Shown in pieces: positions 7,347-41,714 of a DNA stretch of 64,000 nt. A program made the translations under genes and the position numbers. Location: assembly GCA_046597065.1 (NCBI GenBank), contig JBKJLI010000003.1, positions 148,436 to 212,435 on the forward strand, given 5' to 3'. This DNA comes from Candidatus Saccharimonadia bacterium (GTDB lineage: Bacteria; Patescibacteriota; Saccharimonadia; UBA4664; SCTI01). The notes under the pieces were generated by a model, which did no database searches, was not told the DNA's origin, and worked only from the letters and a program-made list of their open reading frames with translations. Position 1 is the stretch's first letter. The number at the start of each line of letters is the position of its first letter.

Positions 7347-10300
7347 TTGAATCCGACGACACTCGCAAGTAGAGCACTCATTGCTGCCACCCTGCTGCTG
7401 CTGGCTGTGGGTCTGTCAAGCTCGGCCAATGCCTCAACAATTCGCAGGGACTGCGACACTCGTACCGTCGCCGCCAGCGTCGACTACAGCTTCTTCCCCT
7501 TTGGCTTTATCTGTCAGAATATCAACCCTAGCTCGCCTGTAAAATCGACCAGCGTCTACCTTGATGGCTACACCAACAACTATGCCTCGTCGCTCAATGG
7601 CTTGGACGGCAGCAGTGATGCCAAATACACCAACGTCAGCCCTGGTCAGACGTTGGCATTCAAAACTGGTTTCGCCAACTGGCGGCCACCGCGTGAGAAC
7701 AGCCCCGGCGGCCCCGGATCGACGGCCACTAGGGACATCTACGTTTGGGTGACGATGGATGCCAATGACTCGCTGTTTGATGATCCCAACCCCTCAAACT
7801 CGATCGGCAACCTCGGTACCAACTTTGGCACCGGGGGCTCATATACAACCTCGACCAACGGATCGATCCCGGTCAATGGCCAGCACCTTGACTGCCCCGG
7901 GGCACACGGCAGCCCAATCGTGATCGCGTATCCGAATGCCAACAACATCACCGGCAATACCGACCGCAGTCCTTATTGGAACTCCACTCACAATGGCGAC
8001 GGTAAGGTCGACTGCAGCAACGAAGGCCAGATGATCTACTGGAAGCTGTCGGGCGTCAGCAATAATCAAAGCCCAGACTTCAAGTTCGATGTAAAACTGC
8101 GTGGTACCTATCCACCGCCGGGGGACAGCGGCAAGATTTGCGTGCGCATGAACGTATCGGTTGAGTACGCTGGCGAGACTCAGCTAGTGGACAAGCTGGG
8201 GCACATGGCGATAAAAAGCAGCAAGGAGTGCTACTGGATTCGAACCTCGGTCGTTGAGGGGAATATCAAGAGCCACCCCTCGCTGGCAACCGGGAAGAAT
8301 CTCGAAGGCGTGCATGTTTACTACACCCGCAATCACTCATGTGACTACGCCGGTGCGTGGAATGTGGTCAAAACCGACGTAGACGGCAATTACAAGTTCT
8401 ACAATGCTTCGGGTGACCAATTCTGCGTCAGGCCCGAGGCGACGACTACAGCGACCGTACCGGGCGGGACGACTTACAACAGTCCCGAGCGGCTGAAGCA
8501 GGATTATAATGGCGCAAATTATGACTATGGGGGAGCGTCACCCGACGATGGCTCAGATGTTGTCAATCGCAACTACTTTTACAAACCGATCCCCGTCGCT
8601 CCAACCATCGATAAAGACAAGGGTGGCCGCGGCACAGTCATAGCGCCTGACGGCCGTACCGTCAACTGCACCGGCACAATCACGCCAGATCCATTATCTG
8701 TGTGTGACCCGGACACACTAAGGCCGGGCGACTCGGTTACATTCTACATCACGGTCAAAAACAGCATCGATGCCAACCAGAATGTCAACATTCAGGATTG
8801 GATCCCACTGAACATCGACCCCGCGTCGGTGAGTGCCGCCAACGTGTCTTTGGTTGAAGACGGCAATGGTCCGCTAAACTGGTTTGTTAGTGGGAGTCCT
8901 GATCCTTTCGCAGCCGTTCAACAGTACTCATATGGAAACCGGGACATAAGCACCAATTTCACGGGAGACTACAGTTCGGGATTCTCGAGCGGATCGGGCT
9001 CTTCTTTACCTCGCTTCAGTTTTACATTCAGTCGGCTGCCCGCTTACAGCGAGGTGTTGATTGAGTGGACCGGTACAGTCAAATCTGCCAACAACATTGG
9101 CGTATATCCGGGGTCCCCAAATGACTATCGCTATTGTCCGGGAGTGAACTCCACCACATATGACAACCCAAATCGCGTGCTAACCGAATGCGAAGATAGG
9201 GCAACCGGCTTGCAGGGTGTAAGTAATGCAGTTGAGGTTGAATCCCCAACGGGGGGGTTTATTAAAGGCTTCTCAAACATTACCTATAACCCCGTACCCT
9301 CCAGCTTTAATCAGGCAGCCAAGACTATCGGCTCTGGTCTTACGCCCGACGAAAATGGAAATATCATTATTGACCCCAATGACCCATCCACAGCCAGTAA
9401 TATGCCAATATCATCCACTTTTGGGAGAGATACCAACATGGGGCCGATACCCAACATGACCATTGACGACCAGGCGGGCCCAGCCGATCTTGACTCGCAT
9501 ATTATCAATATTGATCTCACCGGCAGTGGTGGCGCCAACTTAGTGGGTGCATCCAACCGAATTGTTAGATGGACTGGCCAAGACCTGCGTGGTAGTGGAG
9601 CCATCGATAGCAACACATTTACCTTTAGGGCCGGCGTTAACCCAGCTACGCCAATTGGGACTAAAATATATAACACCACCCGGGCCTGCGCGCCAAAATA
9701 CTGGGAGGCTGGGCACGCTCCATTCTGTATCGACACCAATAAAGTTGGTGTAATTGTGGCTAATATAATTAATCCCTATCTAGTGGGAGACCGCGGAGAT
9801 GTCCGGGCCGGGCAAACTTGCACGGCCGCTACTAGCAGTAAGGCGTACGGTCCGGTTGGGTCGAGTAACAACAAGGGCAACTACACCGTAACCGCCACCG
9901 GCTCTATCACTAACTTTGGCGCTGGGGTTGGTAAGCCAGAATATGGCGTTAACTGTCAGCCGGATCTAGTAGGCTCAGCCAATATACTTGCCACGACCCC
10001 TGGTAAGTTCAAAGCATTTAATACTTGGGTGCCAGTGGCTTCGCAGAGTCAGTACGACGGTAAGGTTGTTACATCCGGCACAATTGATATACCCGCTAAC
10101 ACAACGATTAAGGGTCGCTGGACGCTGTTTGTGGATGGTGATGTTCATATTCTGGGCAACCTGACTTACGACTATGGATCGGTCACATCATTAAACGGAA
10201 CACCATCATTTGGTATTATCGCGACAGGCAACATTTCTATTGATCCTAGCGCTACTCAGCTGAACGGCTATTTTTATGCCAGAGGTAAGATCAATACCTG

Positions 10301-10589
10301 CCAGAGAGCCGATGGCGCTACGCTAACAACTGGTCTCTCGGTGGCTGATTGTAGAAACCGCTTAGTTGTTAATGGTCTGTTAATGGCCAACGGACTGCAA
10401 TTCAACCGTACCTATGTGAATAAAACTACTTCGGGTAATGTTACTACGCAGATTATTGGAGATGACTTTTCTTCCGAGTACGCCAAAATGATTGGGCAAC
10501 TATATGCAGCGACGCCACCAGCATTTAGTACAGTTACTAAGACCTACAACCCGCCGCAGTACTTGCAAGAGGCGCCGGCCAGGTATTAA
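7347..10589 (+). CDS. large secreted surface protein (1080 aa, Gly/Asn/Thr/Ser/Asp-rich), function unknown
   Basis: Signal peptide MNPTTLASRALIAATLLLLAVGLSSSANAS. Long uninterrupted ORF in the GC-rich block. No recognisable catalytic motif and no LPxTG. Lies immediately upstream of pilM. Confidence 0.7.
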   Translation: MNPTTLASRALIAATLLLLAVGLSSSANASTIRRDCDTRTVAASVDYSFFPFGFICQNINPSSPVKSTSVYLDGYTNNYASSLNGLDGSSDAKYTNVSPGQTLAFKTGFANWRPPRENSPGGPGSTATRDIYVWVTMDANDSLFDDPNPSNSIGNLGTNFGTGGSYTTSTNGSIPVNGQHLDCPGAHGSPIVIAYPNANNITGNTDRSPYWNSTHNGDGKVDCSNEGQMIYWKLSGVSNNQSPDFKFDVKLRGTYPPPGDSGKICVRMNVSVEYAGETQLVDKLGHMAIKSSKECYWIRTSVVEGNIKSHPSLATGKNLEGVHVYYTRNHSCDYAGAWNVVKTDVDGNYKFYNASGDQFCVRPEATTTATVPGGTTYNSPERLKQDYNGANYDYGGASPDDGSDVVNRNYFYKPIPVAPTIDKDKGGRGTVIAPDGRTVNCTGTITPDPLSVCDPDTLRPGDSVTFYITVKNSIDANQNVNIQDWIPLNIDPASVSAANVSLVEDGNGPLNWFVSGSPDPFAAVQQYSYGNRDISTNFTGDYSSGFSSGSGSSLPRFSFTFSRLPAYSEVLIEWTGTVKSANNIGVYPGSPNDYRYCPGVNSTTYDNPNRVLTECEDRATGLQGVSNAVEVESPTGGFIKGFSNITYNPVPSSFNQAAKTIGSGLTPDENGNIIIDPNDPSTASNMPISSTFGRDTNMGPIPNMTIDDQAGPADLDSHIINIDLTGSGGANLVGASNRIVRWTGQDLRGSGAIDSNTFTFRAGVNPATPIGTKIYNTTRACAPKYWEAGHAPFCIDTNKVGVIVANIINPYLVGDRGDVRAGQTCTAATSSKAYGPVGSSNNKGNYTVTATGSITNFGAGVGKPEYGVNCQPDLVGSANILATTPGKFKAFNTWVPVASQSQYDGKVVTSGTIDIPANTTIKGRWTLFVDGDVHILGNLTYDYGSVTSLNGTPSFGIIATGNISIDPSATQLNGYFYARGKINTCQRADGATLTTGLSVADCRNRLVVNGLLMANGLQFNRTYVNKTTSGNVTTQIIGDDFSSEYAKMIGQLYAATPPAFSTVTKTYNPPQYLQEAPARY

Positions 10590-22451: not shown

Positions 22452-23414
22452 TTAGCTCTTTTTACGGTGAAAGCGTTCGTGAACCTTTCGTAACTGAGGG
22501 TCGGTTAAATGGGTGTATATTTGCGTGGTCGAAACGTTAGCGTGCCCCAATAGGCTTTGAACACTGCGCAAATCGGCACCGTTGCTTAATAAATCGGTTG
22601 CAAAGCTGTGGCGCAAAGTATGTGGCGTAACGCGTTTGGTAATTCCGGCTAGGCGAGCGTAGCGCTGCACCAGCCGCTGCACACTACGAGCGGTAAGGCG
22701 GGTGTAGGCGCCGTCATCCAGCCCATCCTTGCTGCCGGAATAATGTACAAACAGAGGTTTAAAGTTGTCTGGCCGACTTTTAATATACTGATCTAACCAA
22801 TTGGCGGCTTCTGGTGAAATGAAAATCAGCCGGTCTTTTTGGCCCTTACCTCGAATACTGAACTCGCGCCGCTCTAAATTTATATGATCACGATTCAAGC
22901 TAACCAGTTCACTTACTCTAAGCCCGCCGCTAAAAAGTAGCTCAATGATGGCGCGGTCGCGCAGCCCCACCGGATGACTAACATCCATAGCCACCAGTAA
23001 TCGCTCTACTTCGGATGGGTCTAAAAAGGTCACTTGTGGCCGAGTAACGCTGGCCAGCTCTACCTTGTCACTAGGCATGGCCTCGATATCGCGTTTTGCC
23101 AGGTACTTTAAAAAACTGCGCAGAGCAATTAAGTGGTAGTTTTGAGTGGTTTTACTGATAGACTGGCCACTTTTATCGGTTAGTCGGTTTAGCCACAGCC
23201 GCCATTTGCGCAATGTTTCGGGATCAAACTTGGCTATGGGAATGTCTCCGGCAAACTCCACCAGTCGGCGTAAGTAGTGATCGTAGTTGGCGATGGTTTT
23301 TTGCGAGCGGTTTTGTTCGATTTCTAAGTGCTCTAAAAAATCAGTGATAAGTTCGGAAAGTTTTGATGTTGTGGAGGCCATATCAATATTGTACGACATA
23401 AGCGCAATCGGCAA
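22452..23414 (-). CDS. tyrosine recombinase XerC/XerD family
   Basis: C-terminal catalytic region HTLRHSFATDLLSNGADLRSVQSLLGHANVSTTQIYTH (R...HxxR...Y). N-terminal SAM-like core-binding domain. Real start probably a few codons inside. Confidence 0.85.
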   Translation of the reverse strand: MPIALMSYNIDMASTTSKLSELITDFLEHLEIEQNRSQKTIANYDHYLRRLVEFAGDIPIAKFDPETLRKWRLWLNRLTDKSGQSISKTTQNYHLIALRSFLKYLAKRDIEAMPSDKVELASVTRPQVTFLDPSEVERLLVAMDVSHPVGLRDRAIIELLFSGGLRVSELVSLNRDHINLERREFSIRGKGQKDRLIFISPEAANWLDQYIKSRPDNFKPLFVHYSGSKDGLDDGAYTRLTARSVQRLVQRYARLAGITKRVTPHTLRHSFATDLLSNGADLRSVQSLLGHANVSTTQIYTHLTDPQLRKVHERFHRKKS

Positions 23415-23450
23415 TCGGTTGATGTATTTGGCCAGGCTAATAAAAATAAA

Positions 23451-23476
23451 AACAACCGCCTAAACGGTTGTTTTTT
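23451..23476. terminator. orphan bidirectional terminator-like hairpin
   Basis: aacaaccg-cctaaa-cggttgtt hairpin flanked by an A-run (aaaaataaaa) and tttttt. It sits between the starts of two divergent genes, so it terminates neither. Confidence 0.45.
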
Positions 23477-23484
23477 CCAGATTG

Positions 23485-23526
23485 ATACCCTGGGTGCTCG
23501 GGGTTCAAATCCCCGCGCTTCCACCA
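23485..23526 (+). other. tRNA/tmRNA-like 3' fragment (T-arm + acceptor 3' strand + CCA) with no 5' half
   Basis: cggggTTCAAATccccg T-arm, then cgcttcc-A-CCA. No complementary ggaagcg 5' acceptor strand upstream. A T at the position-70 equivalent would imply G3:U70. Confidence 0.5.
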
Positions 23527-23561
23527 AGTGCATTGGTGCACAAAATGCTACAATTTAAAGC

Positions 23562-25424
23562 ATGAGACCACTGGTGATTGTGGGGGGAGTATTAATTGGG
23601 CTAATGCCTTGGGCATATGGTGGCCGTAACGCTACCTGGATGTTGGTGGCTGCCGCAACGCTGGCTCTAAGTGCCTGGCTATTATTGCGGCAAAAAAAGC
23701 CGGTAGCTATTGCCACGCTTCCGTTGGCAGCCGCTGCCACCGCTTGGATCGGTTGGGGTGCACTGTCACTGCTGTGGAGCGTTAATCAGTATCAATCCTA
23801 CATTTGGCTACTTTATGCGCTTCTGGCAGTTGCCGCCTTTGTTGTAACCGCCAACTTTGATCGTGACCAAAAGCGTTTGTTGATTACCGGATACGTATTA
23901 ACGGCTGCAGGCACCGCCTTAATTGGCTTGGTTTTTTACTTAACCGGCGATTACGAACGCTTAACTGCAACCTTTTACTGGGCCAATCCCGCCGCTGCCT
24001 ATCTGTTGCCAGCCATTTTTATCGCCGCCGCAAAATCCCTTACGCCCAATACCAAGTTACAGCCCAGCCGCCGCTTGCAGGCAACAGTTATCACGGTACT
24101 CCTGTTAGTGGCTTTTTGGCTGACCGATTCAAGAGGTGCGGCTTTGGTAATGTTATTGGTAGGGGTGCCGGGCTTAGCCGTTTCGCCGTTGCGCAAGCAC
24201 TGGCGCCGCATGGCCCTAATTCTCATCGGCAGTTTTACCCTGGCCTGGGGCGTTGCCGCCGTAAAGCCGCTTATTCATTCAAGCGGATATGTGCTTGCAC
24301 CCGGCTCGCGTTACGCTGCCGCTAAAGGAGAATCAAGCAGCTTGCACCAACGGGTTGATTATTTAACCAGCGCCGCCAGCGCCTGGTGGGATCGGCCGCT
24401 ACTTGGTAGTGGAGCCGGCACTTTTGGTACCATTCATCCGCAGTATCAACAAAAGGTGGTAAGTGCGACCAACGACGCCCACAACATCTATTTGCAGACA
24501 CTGTCCGAGCAGGGGATAGTTGGGGCAGTATTGCTAGCATGGCTGCTAATTCTAGTGGTGGCCGGTTTAGCTCGTGGCTTGCGTCATGATTCAACCAAAC
24601 TAACCTGGGCGCTAGGAGCGTTAGCCCTGATTTTGCATTTTGGTCTAGATATTGACGCTCGATATCTAGCACTATTACTGCTTTTGGCAGTACTGCTTGG
24701 CTCGGTATATAAGCCTATGCGCCAGGTTGAACCTAATCCTCGCCGCCGGTTTGCTCTGCCACTAGTACTAGTTATAGCTACTGGCTTGGCGCTAGCCAAC
24801 TACCTGAGTAACTTGCAACAGGCAAAGGGCGAAATCTATAACAGCCAGCACGATTTACCGGCTGCCGCCGCCGCCTATAAGCAGGCACATAGCTATTGGG
24901 TGGCCGATCCTGATACTTATACGGCCGAGGGCATCGATTACTTTGTTTTGGCCAGCTTTACCGGTGGCTCTAAGCAGTTTCAAGATCAGGCTCTTGATCG
25001 CGCCAATAACGCGATTAAACTCGATCCAAACGATGCTCAGCATTACTTTTTGCGCGGACGTATTAAGCGGCTGGCTGGCGATCTACCGGCCGCCCAATCT
25101 GACATCGAAAAAGCCTTGTCACTCGATCGCTTTAATCATGCCGACTATTACGCTGATTTAATCAGCATTCAATTGCAGAGATCTAACTTTGACGGCGCCG
25201 GGCGGACTGTTGATAGCGCCTTAAAGCTGTATACCGATGCGGTGATTGCCGATCGCAGCGCCGACAGTACTCTTAAGCCAGCTGTTGCCTCGATTCTATC
25301 AGTACGGGCTAGCCACCTTGAATCAATTGGGGATATTGTTGGCGCTAAACAGGTATTAGACCGCGCCATTTTGCTTGATCCAACCAATAGGGATGCCATG
25401 CGAGTAAAGGCCGCCTTAAACTAA
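23562..25424 (+). CDS. O-antigen ligase-like (Wzy_C) polytopic membrane protein with C-terminal TPR repeats
   Basis: ~12 TM helices. Wzy_C-like LTDSRGAALVMLL...GSGAGTFGTIHPQYQQ. C-terminal soluble TPR-like region. 620 aa. Confidence 0.65.
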   Translation: MRPLVIVGGVLIGLMPWAYGGRNATWMLVAAATLALSAWLLLRQKKPVAIATLPLAAAATAWIGWGALSLLWSVNQYQSYIWLLYALLAVAAFVVTANFDRDQKRLLITGYVLTAAGTALIGLVFYLTGDYERLTATFYWANPAAAYLLPAIFIAAAKSLTPNTKLQPSRRLQATVITVLLLVAFWLTDSRGAALVMLLVGVPGLAVSPLRKHWRRMALILIGSFTLAWGVAAVKPLIHSSGYVLAPGSRYAAAKGESSSLHQRVDYLTSAASAWWDRPLLGSGAGTFGTIHPQYQQKVVSATNDAHNIYLQTLSEQGIVGAVLLAWLLILVVAGLARGLRHDSTKLTWALGALALILHFGLDIDARYLALLLLLAVLLGSVYKPMRQVEPNPRRRFALPLVLVIATGLALANYLSNLQQAKGEIYNSQHDLPAAAAAYKQAHSYWVADPDTYTAEGIDYFVLASFTGGSKQFQDQALDRANNAIKLDPNDAQHYFLRGRIKRLAGDLPAAQSDIEKALSLDRFNHADYYADLISIQLQRSNFDGAGRTVDSALKLYTDAVIADRSADSTLKPAVASILSVRASHLESIGDIVGAKQVLDRAILLDPTNRDAMRVKAALN

Positions 25425-29458: not shown

Positions 29459-29534
29459 TGGCGCCCCGGGAGAGATTCGAACTCCCGACGCCCTCCTTAG
29501 GACGGAGGCGCTCTATCCACTGAGCTACCGGGGC
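29459..29534 (-). tRNA. tRNA-Arg (anticodon CCT)
   Basis: Manual fold: acceptor GCCCCGG/CCGGGGC, D-arm GCTC-AGTGGATA-GAGC, anticodon stem CCTCC/GGAGG with loop GTCCTAA, T-arm GGGAG-TTCGAAT-CTCTC, discriminator G, CCA encoded. Confidence 0.8.
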
Positions 29535-31244: not shown

Positions 31245-31276
31245 GCGGCGCCAGGAGATTTAACTCCTCGCGCCGC
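31245..31276. terminator. 13-bp GC-rich hairpin at convergent gene ends (overlaps RT stop codon)
   Basis: gcggcgccaggag-atttaa-ctcctcgcgccgc with one mismatch. A T-rich run lies on the minus-strand side. Confidence 0.45.
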
Positions 31277-32234
31277 AATTGTATCGACCCCCCATTTGCA
31301 AGTGGGCGTAGTAGATCCGTAAATCACGCTCAGACAGACGATGAGATGGATCGCCAAATGGACCGCTGTTTGCCATTATAGACATGAAATGCGCAATATG
31401 GCCCTCCAGGAGAGCTTGATCAACATTGCTACCACGGCTACGTGCCCTGAGCAGTTTTTCGATCTCTCTCCGCTGTTTGCCGGGAACGAACAAACGTCCA
31501 CCGTACTCCAGCCCAACTCCAGCGATCACGATCCGCTGATGCTTCTCCAGATCAATTACTTGGGCCTTCGATCGTGAGATTGAAAAGCCGGCTGCTCGAA
31601 TGGCTCCGCGTAGTGCCCGGCGCTTGTGCTTACCAATCGGCTGTTGACTGCTAAAAGTCAGGTCATCGACATAACGGGTGTAGGTAACGCCCCATCGCCG
31701 ACACAGAACGCCTATGTCAAAGTCGAGATACTGCCGGCAGTACAGGTTGAACAGGTCTTGCGATGCCGGCCCGCCGAAGCGTAGCCCTTTGCCACTGCCC
31801 AGCAGGCAGTAGTCTTGCAAAAACCTCATCACTGCCTCATCACCAAGCAGTGAGAGCTGGTCTGCTCCGTTACCGAAACAGGCCGCCAACCTTAGCCCGT
31901 CAACGTTTTCGTAGGCCCGGTATAGATCGTAGCCAACCACGTACCGATTCTCACGATGGGGAAGAATGTTGTCGACTATTGAACTACCAGGCTTTGCCGT
32001 GGCATAGAGGTTAGGGAGCCCCTGGCGCCGCAGTACGACCAGTAGTCGGCTCTGGACAACTCGGGTATGATCGTTGGGGTCATGGATCAACCGTCGCTTG
32101 CCCTTAACCTCTTTCCAGTAGGAGTTAAAGCCGGGCTGCCCCGGCGTATTTGCCGTAAGCTGCTCGATTTCAAGGAACATATTGCCTTTCAGTTGGTTGC
32201 CCAGCAAGGGTGGTCTGGAAGGATCCACCGGCAC
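31260..32234 (-). CDS. compact reverse transcriptase, DGR-like by motif (YVDD; motif-4 GxxxSQ); retron/defence-RT not excluded
   Basis: 324 aa, RT domain only. Motif 4 GLRFGGPASQDLFNLY: Ser-Gln where group II and retron RTs carry Ser-Pro. Motif 5 YTRYVDDLTF. No maturase or endonuclease domain. GTG start with the SD aaggtgag upstream. GC-rich. Confidence 0.8.
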   Translation of the reverse strand: MPVDPSRPPLLGNQLKGNMFLEIEQLTANTPGQPGFNSYWKEVKGKRRLIHDPNDHTRVVQSRLLVVLRRQGLPNLYATAKPGSSIVDNILPHRENRYVVGYDLYRAYENVDGLRLAACFGNGADQLSLLGDEAVMRFLQDYCLLGSGKGLRFGGPASQDLFNLYCRQYLDFDIGVLCRRWGVTYTRYVDDLTFSSQQPIGKHKRRALRGAIRAAGFSISRSKAQVIDLEKHQRIVIAGVGLEYGGRLFVPGKQRREIEKLLRARSRGSNVDQALLEGHIAHFMSIMANSGPFGDPSHRLSERDLRIYYAHLQMGGRYNCGARS

Positions 32235-32622: not shown

Positions 32623-32967
32623 TTAACAGCCGCCGTTTTGGTACTTGTCGCCCCACTTGGCCATGGCTCGAAGAATTGGCACTAAATCCCTACCCTTATC
32701 GGTAAGGGTGTACTCGATGCGCGGTGGCACCTCATGGAATGATTCCTTGGTAATAATCTCGCCGGCCTCCATATCATCCAGTCGTTGTGATAGTGTGCGC
32801 GGGCTAATTCCAACCAGCGAGTTTTGCAGCTGGCTAAACCTCCGCGGGCCATCAACCATATCGCGCAAAATCAGCCCCGACCAGCGATCGCCAACTACTT
32901 TTAAACTGGTGGCAATGCAGCCGCTCTTGGGCTCGATGGGGGACAGAATTTTATGGGTAGTTTTCAT
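32623..32967 (-). CDS. HxlR-family winged-helix transcriptional regulator
   Basis: ...VGDRWSGLILRDMVDGPRRFSQLQNSLVGISPRTLSQRLDDMEAGEIITKESFHEVPPRIEYTLTDKGRDLVPIL, the canonical HxlR/MarR-like wHTH. Start chosen at MKTTHKIL; an upstream Met is possible. Confidence 0.75.
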   Translation of the reverse strand: MKTTHKILSPIEPKSGCIATSLKVVGDRWSGLILRDMVDGPRRFSQLQNSLVGISPRTLSQRLDDMEAGEIITKESFHEVPPRIEYTLTDKGRDLVPILRAMAKWGDKYQNGGC

Positions 32968-33077
32968 AACGATTCTATTATGCACCATAATTCTATACTT
33001 TAAAATGTATAGTAATAGATCCCAAGGAGTATATATGAAAAACATCGCTGATATTAGATGAGCCGAATCATCCCGCA

Positions 33078-33449
33078 ATGCGTCATTACCAGCACGATCA
33101 CACTAAAAAGTGGTCTAAAATCGTGGATGAAGCCGATGGTTTTATTATAGTTACGCCAGAATATAATCATGGCTACTCGGCAGGACTAAACAACGCCATC
33201 GATTATTTATACAAAGAGTGGACCGGCAAACCCGTTAGCTTTGTAAGCTATGGAGGGGTATCGGGGGGTCTACGTGCGGTAGAGCAGTTACGCCAGGTTG
33301 TGATTGAGTTGCGTATGCAGCCACTGCGCGAACAAGTATCAATACCGTTTGTGAGAGGTGCAGTTAGGGAAGGCAAGCTGCCACACGATGATGCTAGACA
33401 TAAGCAACTACAAACACACTTAGCTGATTTAGCAAGCAGCCTAAGCTAG
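33078..33449 (+). pseudogene. NADPH-dependent FMN reductase family, 5'-truncated remnant
   Basis: The ORF begins inside the conserved core (ADGFIIVTPEYNHGYSAGLNNAIDYL aligns to ~residue 70 of SsuE-type enzymes). The N-terminal GSxRxxSxN FMN-phosphate loop is missing. A strong SD plus ATG upstream opens only an 8-codon out-of-frame stub (MKNIADIR*). Confidence 0.55.
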
Positions 33450-40904: not shown

Positions 40905-41627
40905 TTGTCTACCGATAAGATCACCGTTTCATTAAGTACTCGTGAGCAACGAGGCAAAAGCAACCAAGCCCTGCGCCTGGCCGGTCAAACTCCGGCTGTG
41001 GTTTATGGTCATGGTTCCGAGCCCCAGTCTGTCGCGGTAGAGACCAAGATAATTGATAAGGTTTATGCCCAAGCTGGTGGCAACAAGATTATCGGACTAA
41101 AGATCGATGATGAGCGAATGAAAAATGCCCGCATTCAAGATGTCCAGCGTAATGTCCGTAACGGTCATCTGTCGCACATCGACTTTTATCTGGTTAAGAT
41201 GGATGAAAAGCTCAAGGCCGAGATTCCGCTGCACTTTACCGGTGAATCAACCGCCGTCTACCAGCAAGAGGGTAGCCTGATTCGCCCAATCGAGACCATC
41301 GAAATCGAGGCGTTACCGGGCAATCTACCCGAGAGCTTTGAAGTCGACATTAGCGTTTTAGATGACTTTGATAAAACCATTACCGTCGCTGATCTTAAAA
41401 TCCCCGAAGGCGTGGAGCTTTTAACCGCTCTCGAAGAAGTGATCGCAAAGGTAGAGCCGCCACGTAGCGACGAGGAGCTCGAAGAGCTTGATGCCGAGAT
41501 TGACGAGAAGGCCGAAATGCCCGAGGGCGCAGTGGAGGACAGTGAAGTCGTTGACTCAAATGATGGAGGCACTCGAAAAGAGCCTCAAGATAAAGCCGCC
41601 GGAGCCGACCCAACCGCCACCAAGTAA
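40905..41627 (+). CDS. rplY: 50S ribosomal protein L25 / general stress protein Ctc (long form)
   Basis: bL25 N-domain (ITVSLSTREQRGKSNQALRLAGQTPAVVYGHG) plus a Ctc C-domain and an acidic tail. 240 aa. Confidence 0.85.
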   Translation: MSTDKITVSLSTREQRGKSNQALRLAGQTPAVVYGHGSEPQSVAVETKIIDKVYAQAGGNKIIGLKIDDERMKNARIQDVQRNVRNGHLSHIDFYLVKMDEKLKAEIPLHFTGESTAVYQQEGSLIRPIETIEIEALPGNLPESFEVDISVLDDFDKTITVADLKIPEGVELLTALEEVIAKVEPPRSDEELEELDAEIDEKAEMPEGAVEDSEVVDSNDGGTRKEPQDKAAGADPTATK

Positions 41628-41714
41628 CGCGTTACATTTTAGAGATTGTTTGCTTAAGCCATAAATTACCCACCAATCGGTGGGTAATTTATTGATAAAA
41701 GCACACATTTAATT

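Follow-up and report, generated by a model that had tools for sequence, protein, structure and literature searches.

The window, a 64-kb stretch of Saccharimonadia DNA (64,000 nucleotides), contains two divergently oriented genes separated by a spacer of ~180 nt. Leftward from this spacer runs the gene of a Xer-family tyrosine recombinase of 309 amino acids (xer; positions 22452–23381, minus strand), identified by the Pfam Phage_integrase and SAM-like N-terminal domains and by NCBIfam models; its ATG lies at 23381, and the open frame extends to a TTG at 23414. Rightward runs the gene of a Wzy_C (O-antigen-ligase-type) membrane protein with C-terminal TPR repeats (wzy; 23562–25424, plus strand; Pfam), with an N-terminus (..VIVGGV/ILIG..) that relatives conserve at the protein level. 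The recombinase scores 235 bits against the XerA-type NCBIfam model (cut-off 220) and ~250 bits against the XerD and XerC models, and it has hundreds of orthologues at 75–89% identity, the named ones belonging to Saccharimonadia or Patescibacteria.

The surroundings are those of a core chromosomal region. The left 23 kb of the window encode EF-P, an FtsJ-type methyltransferase, YchF, an M16 peptidase, PilM/PilN, two T2SSE ATPases, a T2SSF protein, a prepilin peptidase and pilins, including a pilus machinery of the PilM/N/B/T/C type; GC content is flat, and no phage-type integrase is present at the locus. Every relative contig that we read keeps the same order: the pilin and prepilin-peptidase side, xer, wzy, bacA (VTT in most) and an M16 peptidase. 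The recombinase is a housekeeping Xer-family neighbour of the features described below, and not part of an island.

Promoter-like boxes precede both genes. A TACAAT on the minus strand at 23393–23388, conserved in the relative L004, is a putative −10 box of xer. On the plus strand, an extended −10-like TGcTACAAT (23546–23554) ends 7 nt before the wzy ATG and would provide wzy with a promoter of its own, independent of the tRNA-like fragment that lies upstream of it; the same box stands before wzy in L004, which has no such fragment.

A hairpin and a tRNA-like 3′ end between xer and wzy

Within the spacer, positions 23448–23475 form a perfect hairpin with arms of 11 bp (23448–23458 and 23465–23475, 100% complementary) and a loop of 6 nt, preceded by an A-rich run and followed by TTTTTT. 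This is the shape of an intrinsic terminator, a G+C-rich core with a T run, and a terminator scan called it, bearing out the description given by an earlier reading of the sequence alone (hereafter the sequence-only reading). Such structures are scarce: the 64 kb hold four distinct perfect hairpins with arms of ≥9 bp, and 0.13 hairpins with arms of ≥11 bp are expected per simulated window. The hairpin, which we assign to neither strand, lies between the divergent starts of xer (23381, minus strand) and wzy (23562, plus strand), at the 3′ end of no protein-coding unit, so that the earlier statement that it terminates no gene holds as far as protein genes are concerned, with xer read leftward from 23381 and wzy rightward from 23562. 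It may end a short non-coding unit, or, judging from its form and position, it may stop transcripts from crossing the spacer in either direction. The spacer region as a whole folds better than its shuffles (z = −2.97), a score that comes mostly from the hairpin. An 8/11 “repeat” flanking the hairpin (CCAGGCTAATA and CCAGATTGATA) was taken as chance.

Downstream of the hairpin, and on the plus strand, a 22-nt link (23477–23498) leads into a T-arm, CGGGG/TTCAAAT/CCCCG (23499–23515), which is followed directly by a 3′ acceptor strand and CCA end (23516–23526): CGCTTCC at 23516–23522, with U69 and U70 (the latter at position 23520), the discriminator A at 23523 and CCA at 23524–23526. We scanned the window for T-stems of 5 bp that include G53:C61, enclose a TTCRANN loop and are followed by 7 nt, any nucleotide and CCA. 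The scan returned eight sites, namely the seven annotated tRNAs and 23499–23526, against an expectation of 0.003 per simulated window. The piece thus carries all that is expected of the T-arm side of a tmRNA (a TPsiC-type loop, an acceptor strand, discriminator A and CCA), and the U70 that had been pointed out as the mark of an Ala- or tmRNA-type acceptor sits in a genuine tRNA- or tmRNA-type 3′ end.

The corresponding 5′ half is missing, as the sequence-only reading had also observed. The stretch from the xer start to the hairpin (23382–23447) holds no recognizable 5′ half of a tRNA or tmRNA, and when it was compared with the 5′ parts of the related loci L122, L191 and L184 described below, 874, 963 and 1994 of 2000 shuffles, respectively, did as well, so that its resemblance to them is no better than chance. 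The link shows weak homology to relatives, with a similarity to the corresponding stretches of L191 and L122 that is not significant (220 and 343 of 2000 shuffles). It can be drawn as an anticodon-arm-like CCAGA/TTGATAC/CCTGG with one A–C mismatch, plus 5 nt. A candidate acceptor–T-arm minihelix, GGGUGCU/CGCUUCC, was rejected; 5 of its 7 positions pair, which has a chance of ~7%, and neither L191 nor L122 conserves the pairing.

Neither ARAGORN nor Rfam at its gathering thresholds called a gene in 23415–23561, and below threshold the T-arm and acceptor strand alone gave 21.9 bits with tmRNA_permuted and 17.2 bits with beta_tmRNA (thresholds 47–84). The piece is not a full tmRNA: ARAGORN calls none here, and an mRNA-like domain with its resume codon and tag reading frame is missing. 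Nor is the piece a mini-tmRNA consisting of the tRNA-like domain (TLD) only, since it comprises the 3′ half without the 5′ strand. Alanyl-tRNA synthetase needs a G3:U70 helix, the identity rule shared by tRNA-Ala and tmRNA. No 5′ acceptor strand that could partner U70 was found nearby, and because this strand is missing the window copy would be unable to offer such a helix to the synthetase; from its sequence it is probably inert. A second copy of the fragment is absent from the window: neither a search allowing up to 3 mismatches nor blastn-short found one, and the motif scan showed no further orphan T-arm.

Homologues at the same spacer in related genomes

We scanned the region upstream of xer in 92 xer loci for orphan T-arms and YTCCNCCA ends. 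Both scans recovered homologues in the same spacer and in the same orientation as in the window, and the module or its debris occurs at this spacer in at least four lineages: that of the window and those typified by L122, L191 and L184.

The most complete copy is that of L122, whose XerD is 85% identical. Its spacer carries a hairpin (AAAAAAGCAGC-TGTGAG-GCTGCTTTTTT), then ~175 nt, then GGGGATGAGTTGGTCTAATCAGGGACTGACACTTCCTAGATTCGGGGTTCAATTCCCCGCATCTCCACCA. Positions 713–644 of this locus form a complete 70-nt TLD, that is, a TLD-only mini-tmRNA. Against the Rfam tmRNA model RF00023 the 70-mer aligns over model positions 1–374 with a 308-nt interior skipped, at 40.2 bits and an E-value of 8e-15 (gathering score 47). 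Its acceptor helix GGGGAUG/CAUCUCC has 7 bp including G3:U70 and is followed by A73 and CCA, and the 70-mer opens with GGGGATGAGTTGG at its 5′ end, much like standard tmRNAs (GGGGATGACTTGGTTTCGAC, for example). Just upstream, ~130 nt are bracketed by an 18-nt direct repeat, GACTGACACTTCCTAGAT.

The other lineages hold reduced forms. In L191 and L192 the hairpin is followed by GGGCCGACGTAGGCCTGATAACCCCAGTGTC and then by CGGGGTTCGAATCCCCG-CACCTCC-C-CCA, the distance from hairpin to T-arm being 31 nt in L191 and 22 nt in the window. In L184–L189 and L105, whose XerD is 97% identical to that of L122, the hairpin is followed by GAAGGGCGAGTTGGATTCTGCGCCTCCACCA, in which a stub of the 5′ TLD runs straight into the 3′ strand, the T-arm having been deleted. 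In L190 (XerD 93% identical to that of L122) and in L009 the spacer shows no trace of the module. Because L184 and L190 stand so close to L122, and the former has lost the T-arm and the latter everything, erosion is rapid. The same xer–wzy junction, with a short spacer that lacks the fragment, is found in L001, L003, L006/L104, L009 and L190; in L004 and L101, which are the closest relatives, the place of the fragment is taken by purF and two small membrane ORFs. Two clades of the XerD tree contain the element, and each of them also has sister tips that lack it.

What is shared among these copies is narrow. The T-stem is identical in the window, L122 and L191, with loops TTCAAAT, TTCAATT and TTCGAAT, and the 3′ ends read CATCTCC-A-CCA (L122), CACCTCC-C-CCA (L191) and CGCCTCC-A-CCA (L184). 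Outside the T-arm, the intergenic DNA of the three lineages with identical T-stems cannot be aligned. Demonstrable homology between the window and the other lineages is confined to the 28 nt of T-arm, acceptor strand and CCA. The hairpins of L122, L184 and L191 match that of the window in form and position, and differ from it in sequence; a hairpin is thus kept in four lineages, with arms that have changed and still pair. Recurrence at one site could reflect a single old insertion followed by losses, or repeated independent insertion, and the identity of the T-stem across three lineages could, on comparison of the sequences, be a sign of selection, and so of function, rather than of decay.

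Origin of the fragment and competing explanations

To look for a source, we searched beyond the locus. The exact 25-mer GGTTCAAATCCCCGCGCTTCCACCA had no match in 185,579 species genomes, IMG/VR or the JGI metagenomes. The degenerate pattern TTCNANTCNNNGCGCTTCCACCA, which has the same acceptor end, matched 89 genomic stretches in the 185,579 species genomes, mostly a coding motif; the remainder comprised tmRNA (6), tRNA-Tyr (4), tRNA-Lys (3) and tRNA-Ala (2) genes from other phyla. None of the 89 stretches came from Saccharimonadia, and this search identifies no source. In IMG/VR, the pattern CGGGG-TTCRANT-CCCCG-CNNCTCC-ACCA, which has C at position 69 where the window has U (the window's own acceptor end was searched separately), fell in tmRNA genes in 77 of 120 cases and in tRNA-Ala genes in 7 of 120, the rest being mostly fragments or TLD-only genes. 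These counts, together with the match of L122 to the tmRNA model at both ends, favour an origin from a tmRNA tRNA-like domain; of the two acceptor types that the sequence-only reading had left side by side, it is the tmRNA type that L122 supports, through its two-ended match with G3:U70. No viral contig matched the sequence of the window or of L122: the L122 repeat gave one chance coding match and the window link gave none.

Two IMG/VR contigs, L223 and L282, do carry TLD-only tmRNAs, each 77 nt long and scoring 46.4–46.7 bits. Both sit within head modules, with portal or terminase genes on one side and scaffold or capsid genes on the other. This makes them real phage genes and demonstrates the existence of a mobile source for modules of this kind.

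With moderate confidence, we take the window copy to be most likely the truncated relic of a module made of a hairpin and a TLD-only mini-tmRNA, eroding in the xer–wzy spacer. An ancestor would have gained the terminator-like hairpin and the mini-tmRNA between xer and wzy, once or more than once. The module would likely have come from mobile or phage DNA, since TLD-only tmRNAs are phage genes, or else from the cell's own ssrA. It would then not have been maintained, and deletions would have stripped the T-arm, the 5′ strand or everything in close relatives, leaving the window with the hairpin and the 3′ half and without the 5′ acceptor strand. The feature itself is real and has an ordinary explanation, as a tmRNA-type gene fragment or TLD-only relic of a known kind.

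Competing accounts place the fragment differently. The sequence-only reading took it for the attachment-site scar of an integrative element on the low-coordinate side, comprising the recombinase and perhaps also the pilus/GC-rich block, with the fragment as the right-hand att repeat. Its orientation does fit the usual attR logic, and a tyrosine recombinase does adjoin it. The recombinase, however, is a Xer orthologue shared by hundreds of Saccharimonadia rather than an integrase that is variable or absent where the insertion is missing; every relative has it in the same synteny, and the order of pilus genes, xer and wzy holds whether or not the fragment is there. The left 23 kb, where an island would have to lie, encode EF-P, YchF and the type IV pilus machinery, and the window contains no intact plus-strand tRNA or tmRNA and no repeat to the left. 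In particular, the matching direct repeat suggested near 6.6–6.8 kb has no counterpart there or elsewhere in the window, nor does any second repeat bound accessory genes within the 64 kb. We consider such an island very improbable; a tyrosine recombinase beside a tRNA-like fragment does not suffice to call one. What survives of the scar proposal is that the piece is a relic, probably of foreign DNA, without an island edge on the low-coordinate side. The same reading had put forward a synteny comparison in which an identical gene order without the fragment would mark a decayed relic, and this is the order that the relatives show. A more modest version, in which a 3′ end displaced from the host ssrA (or a tRNA gene) marks an element since lost or rearranged and the 5′ half was never at the locus in the window's lineage, is also unlikely, if less so. 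It would account for the classic form of the fragment, from shortly before the T-arm through CCA; tmRNA fragments left by island integration are a recognized class (PMC4131195); and the spacer is a hot-spot for indels, as seen in the insertion carried by L004 and L101 and in the repeat around ~130 nt in L122. Against it, in L122 and L184 the same site holds sequence from the 5′ part of the TLD, whereas a displaced 3′ end would have come without it; the partner repeat is absent from the 64 kb and a phage-type integrase is lacking; and conserved core genes occupy both flanks, at a junction older than the fragment.

Two further proposals concern the identity of the RNA. An ordinary tRNA pseudogene with no tie to tmRNA, for instance Ile(GAU)-like from the TTGATAC loop or Lys- or Tyr-like from the shared CGCTTCC-A-CCA, would make sense of the 22 nt before the T-arm, which can be drawn as an anticodon arm with a 5-nt variable loop, and of an acceptor end that also occurs in the tRNA-Tyr, tRNA-Lys and tRNA-Ala genes counted above. 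ARAGORN, too, draws a tRNA with a 45-nt “intron” when its threshold is lowered to 70%. That drawing is far below threshold and is an artefact, with 5 of 7 acceptor pairs, no D-arm, the anticodon AAT and the terminator hairpin as its “intron”; moreover, the supposed anticodons vary between lineages (GAT, GAC and GAT), the stem is mismatched and not conserved, and the L122 homologue fits the tmRNA model at both ends. We hold this account to be doubtful. That the fragment is the acceptor piece of a circularly permuted, two-piece tmRNA with its coding piece downstream is barely conceivable. Rfam tmRNA_permuted does pair the acceptor strand with GGGGGAG at 23583–23589 (21.9 bits, E = 0.013), yet this score is far under the gathering score of 47, ARAGORN, which is able to detect permuted tmRNAs, finds none, and the stretch taken as the 5′ strand belongs to the wzy frame. 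Because the wzy N-terminus is conserved as protein, a tmRNA coding piece downstream is excluded.

A functional element is likewise doubtful in our view: a short RNA ending in T-arm and CCA that would bind SmpB, EF-Tu or processing enzymes, or a hairpin with structured DNA that would insulate the xer and wzy promoters from each other. Its appeal lies in conservation, since the identical T-stem and the CCA end are kept in three lineages amid spacer DNA that cannot be aligned and a pairing hairpin is kept in four; the region also folds better than shuffles, and TLD-only molecules reportedly act as inhibitors of tmRNA (Mao 2009, as cited in PMC4131195). Yet the T-arm or the whole module has been lost without replacement in L184, L190, L009 and L004, the acceptor strand of the window copy lacks a partner, a consensus scan found no promoter-like site, and the fold score is dominated by the hairpin. 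A bolder form of this proposal strikes us as distinctly improbable. It would have the clade carry, or have carried, a phage-derived hairpin and TLD mini-tmRNA inserted repeatedly beside xer, perhaps by Xer itself at a dif-like site; the RNAs expressed from intact copies such as that of L122 would titrate SmpB or AlaRS and in this way modulate trans-translation, and the T-arm and CCA of the window would still be under selection. The spacer has no site of the CATAA-N6-TTATG type, and 50 loci showed no consistent motif upstream of xer; a link between Xer and insertions at this spacer, along the lines of dif sites and IMEX elements, is speculation.

If the favoured reading as an eroding mini-tmRNA module holds, relics at one fixed spacer in varied states of erosion would make up a small natural series of gene death in streamlined genomes. 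Should the intact L122 copy be expressed, it would be a first chromosomal example of a TLD-only tmRNA in Patescibacteria. The ease with which domain-only tmRNAs are found in the structural modules of IMG/VR phages also supports the idea that phages commonly carry ribosome-rescue RNA decoys.

Comparison with known systems

The two features and the gene beside them each have known counterparts. The hairpin resembles bidirectional intrinsic (Rho-independent) terminators in its 11 perfect pairs, short loop, preceding A run and following T run, and differs from them in its position between two gene starts, where it ends no protein-coding transcript. The recombinase gene resembles those of the Xer systems that resolve chromosome dimers (XerC/XerD, archaeal XerA and XerS) in scoring as Xer family and in being a single conserved chromosomal gene. 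XerS has its difSL adjacent to it, whereas the spacer of the window yielded no dif-like site.

Among tmRNA remnants, the tmRNA Website paper lists pseudogenes that are missing one end, besides the fragments produced by island integration (PMC4131195). The window matches the latter in its orphan T-arm, U70 acceptor strand and ACCA, in the absence of a 5′ end and of a tag frame, and in its location in an indel hot-spot. It differs from them in having no island, phage-type integrase or partner repeat, and its relatives carry 5′-end material, even a complete TLD, at the same site.

The other precedent is the phage TLD-only tmRNA, recorded as “TLD only” for mycobacteriophage DS6A (PMC4131195) and represented here by L223 and L282. 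L122 is built like these genes, with a GGGG-type 5′ strand, a short interior, a T-arm and CNNCUCC-ACCA, and with the interior skipped it scores 40.2 bits on RF00023 where the phage genes score 46.4–46.7 bits. The window copy has no 5′ strand and so is not itself a TLD-only tmRNA. In contrast to the phage genes, the Saccharimonadia copies are chromosomal, lie between core genes, are preceded by a terminator-like hairpin and are visibly decaying.

Variation in the xer–wzy spacer

The gap between the divergent xer and wzy genes differs in content even between the window and its closest relatives, contigs L004 and L101, whose XerD proteins are approximately 87-89% identical to that of the window. 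In both relatives the spacer (930-2960 in L004, 1930-3960 in L101) holds a gene for a 469-aa purF-like amidophosphoribosyltransferase as well as a pair of small membrane ORFs; because the window contains none of these genes, the spacer emerges as an insertion/deletion hot-spot. In the related contig L106, the same spacer, upstream of xer, is taken up by a long palindrome that is perfect over arms of 18 bp (about 2790-2860; AGTCATAATCTAATTTAG ... CTAAATTAGATTATGACT), and two further relatives, L006 and L104, carry a dif-like sequence, GATGCATAAAACTCTTATGATAAAAT, in the spacer upstream of xer. No motif shared among the relatives' spacers upstream of xer could be identified.

Within L122, the relative with a complete 70-nt mini-tmRNA in this spacer, an 18-nt perfect direct repeat, GACTGACACTTCCTAGAT, occurs on the minus strand at 810-830 and 672-690. 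The two copies enclose ~130 nt in which a -10-like box (TGGTTTAAT) and a 7-bp hairpin lie together with the mini-tmRNA's 5′ end, an arrangement that has the appearance of an insertion or a recombination just before the T-arm.

In the window, TACAAT -10-like boxes, identified from sequence only, precede both xer (23388-23393, minus strand) and wzy (23546-23554, plus strand). Each gene's ATG lies only 6-7 nt beyond its box, which suggests that both mRNAs are leaderless or near-leaderless.

A candidate retron and other window features

Farther along the window, a gene for a 324-aa reverse transcriptase (31260-32234, minus strand) is accompanied on the same strand by an HxlR-type regulator (32623-33078) and tRNA-Arg(CCT) (29459-29534). 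The enzyme matched Pfam RVT_1 weakly (36 bits) and the PADLOC retron-type RT models clearly (RT_VI, 87 bits; RT_II-A, 82 bits); this Saccharimonadia genome may encode a retron. The strongest hairpin of the window, with 14-bp perfect arms (ATAAATTACCCACC-AATC-GGTGGGTAATTTAT, 41661-41692), presumably serves as terminator for the ORF that ends shortly before it, at 41627. Just upstream of pilM, within a slightly GC-richer stretch (0.54-0.57), a 1080-aa ORF (7347-10589, plus strand) returned no Pfam match at E <= 1e-5.

TLD-only tmRNA genes in phages

Genes consisting solely of the tRNA-like domain (TLD) of tmRNA also occur in viral contigs from IMG/VR, where the 35 'orphan' matches include several sequence families of this kind. 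Rfam's tmRNA model identified 77-nt examples in L223 (786-862, minus strand) and L282 (575-651, plus strand), the 77-nt forms scoring 46.4-46.7 bits with the interior of the model missing; others lie in L206, L230, L232, L239, L247 and L275. They are housed in phage head-morphogenesis modules, with terminase or SPP1-type portal genes on one side and scaffold or GP7 capsid genes on the other. These IMG/VR TLD-only tmRNAs are phage genes, not attachment sites of integrative elements.
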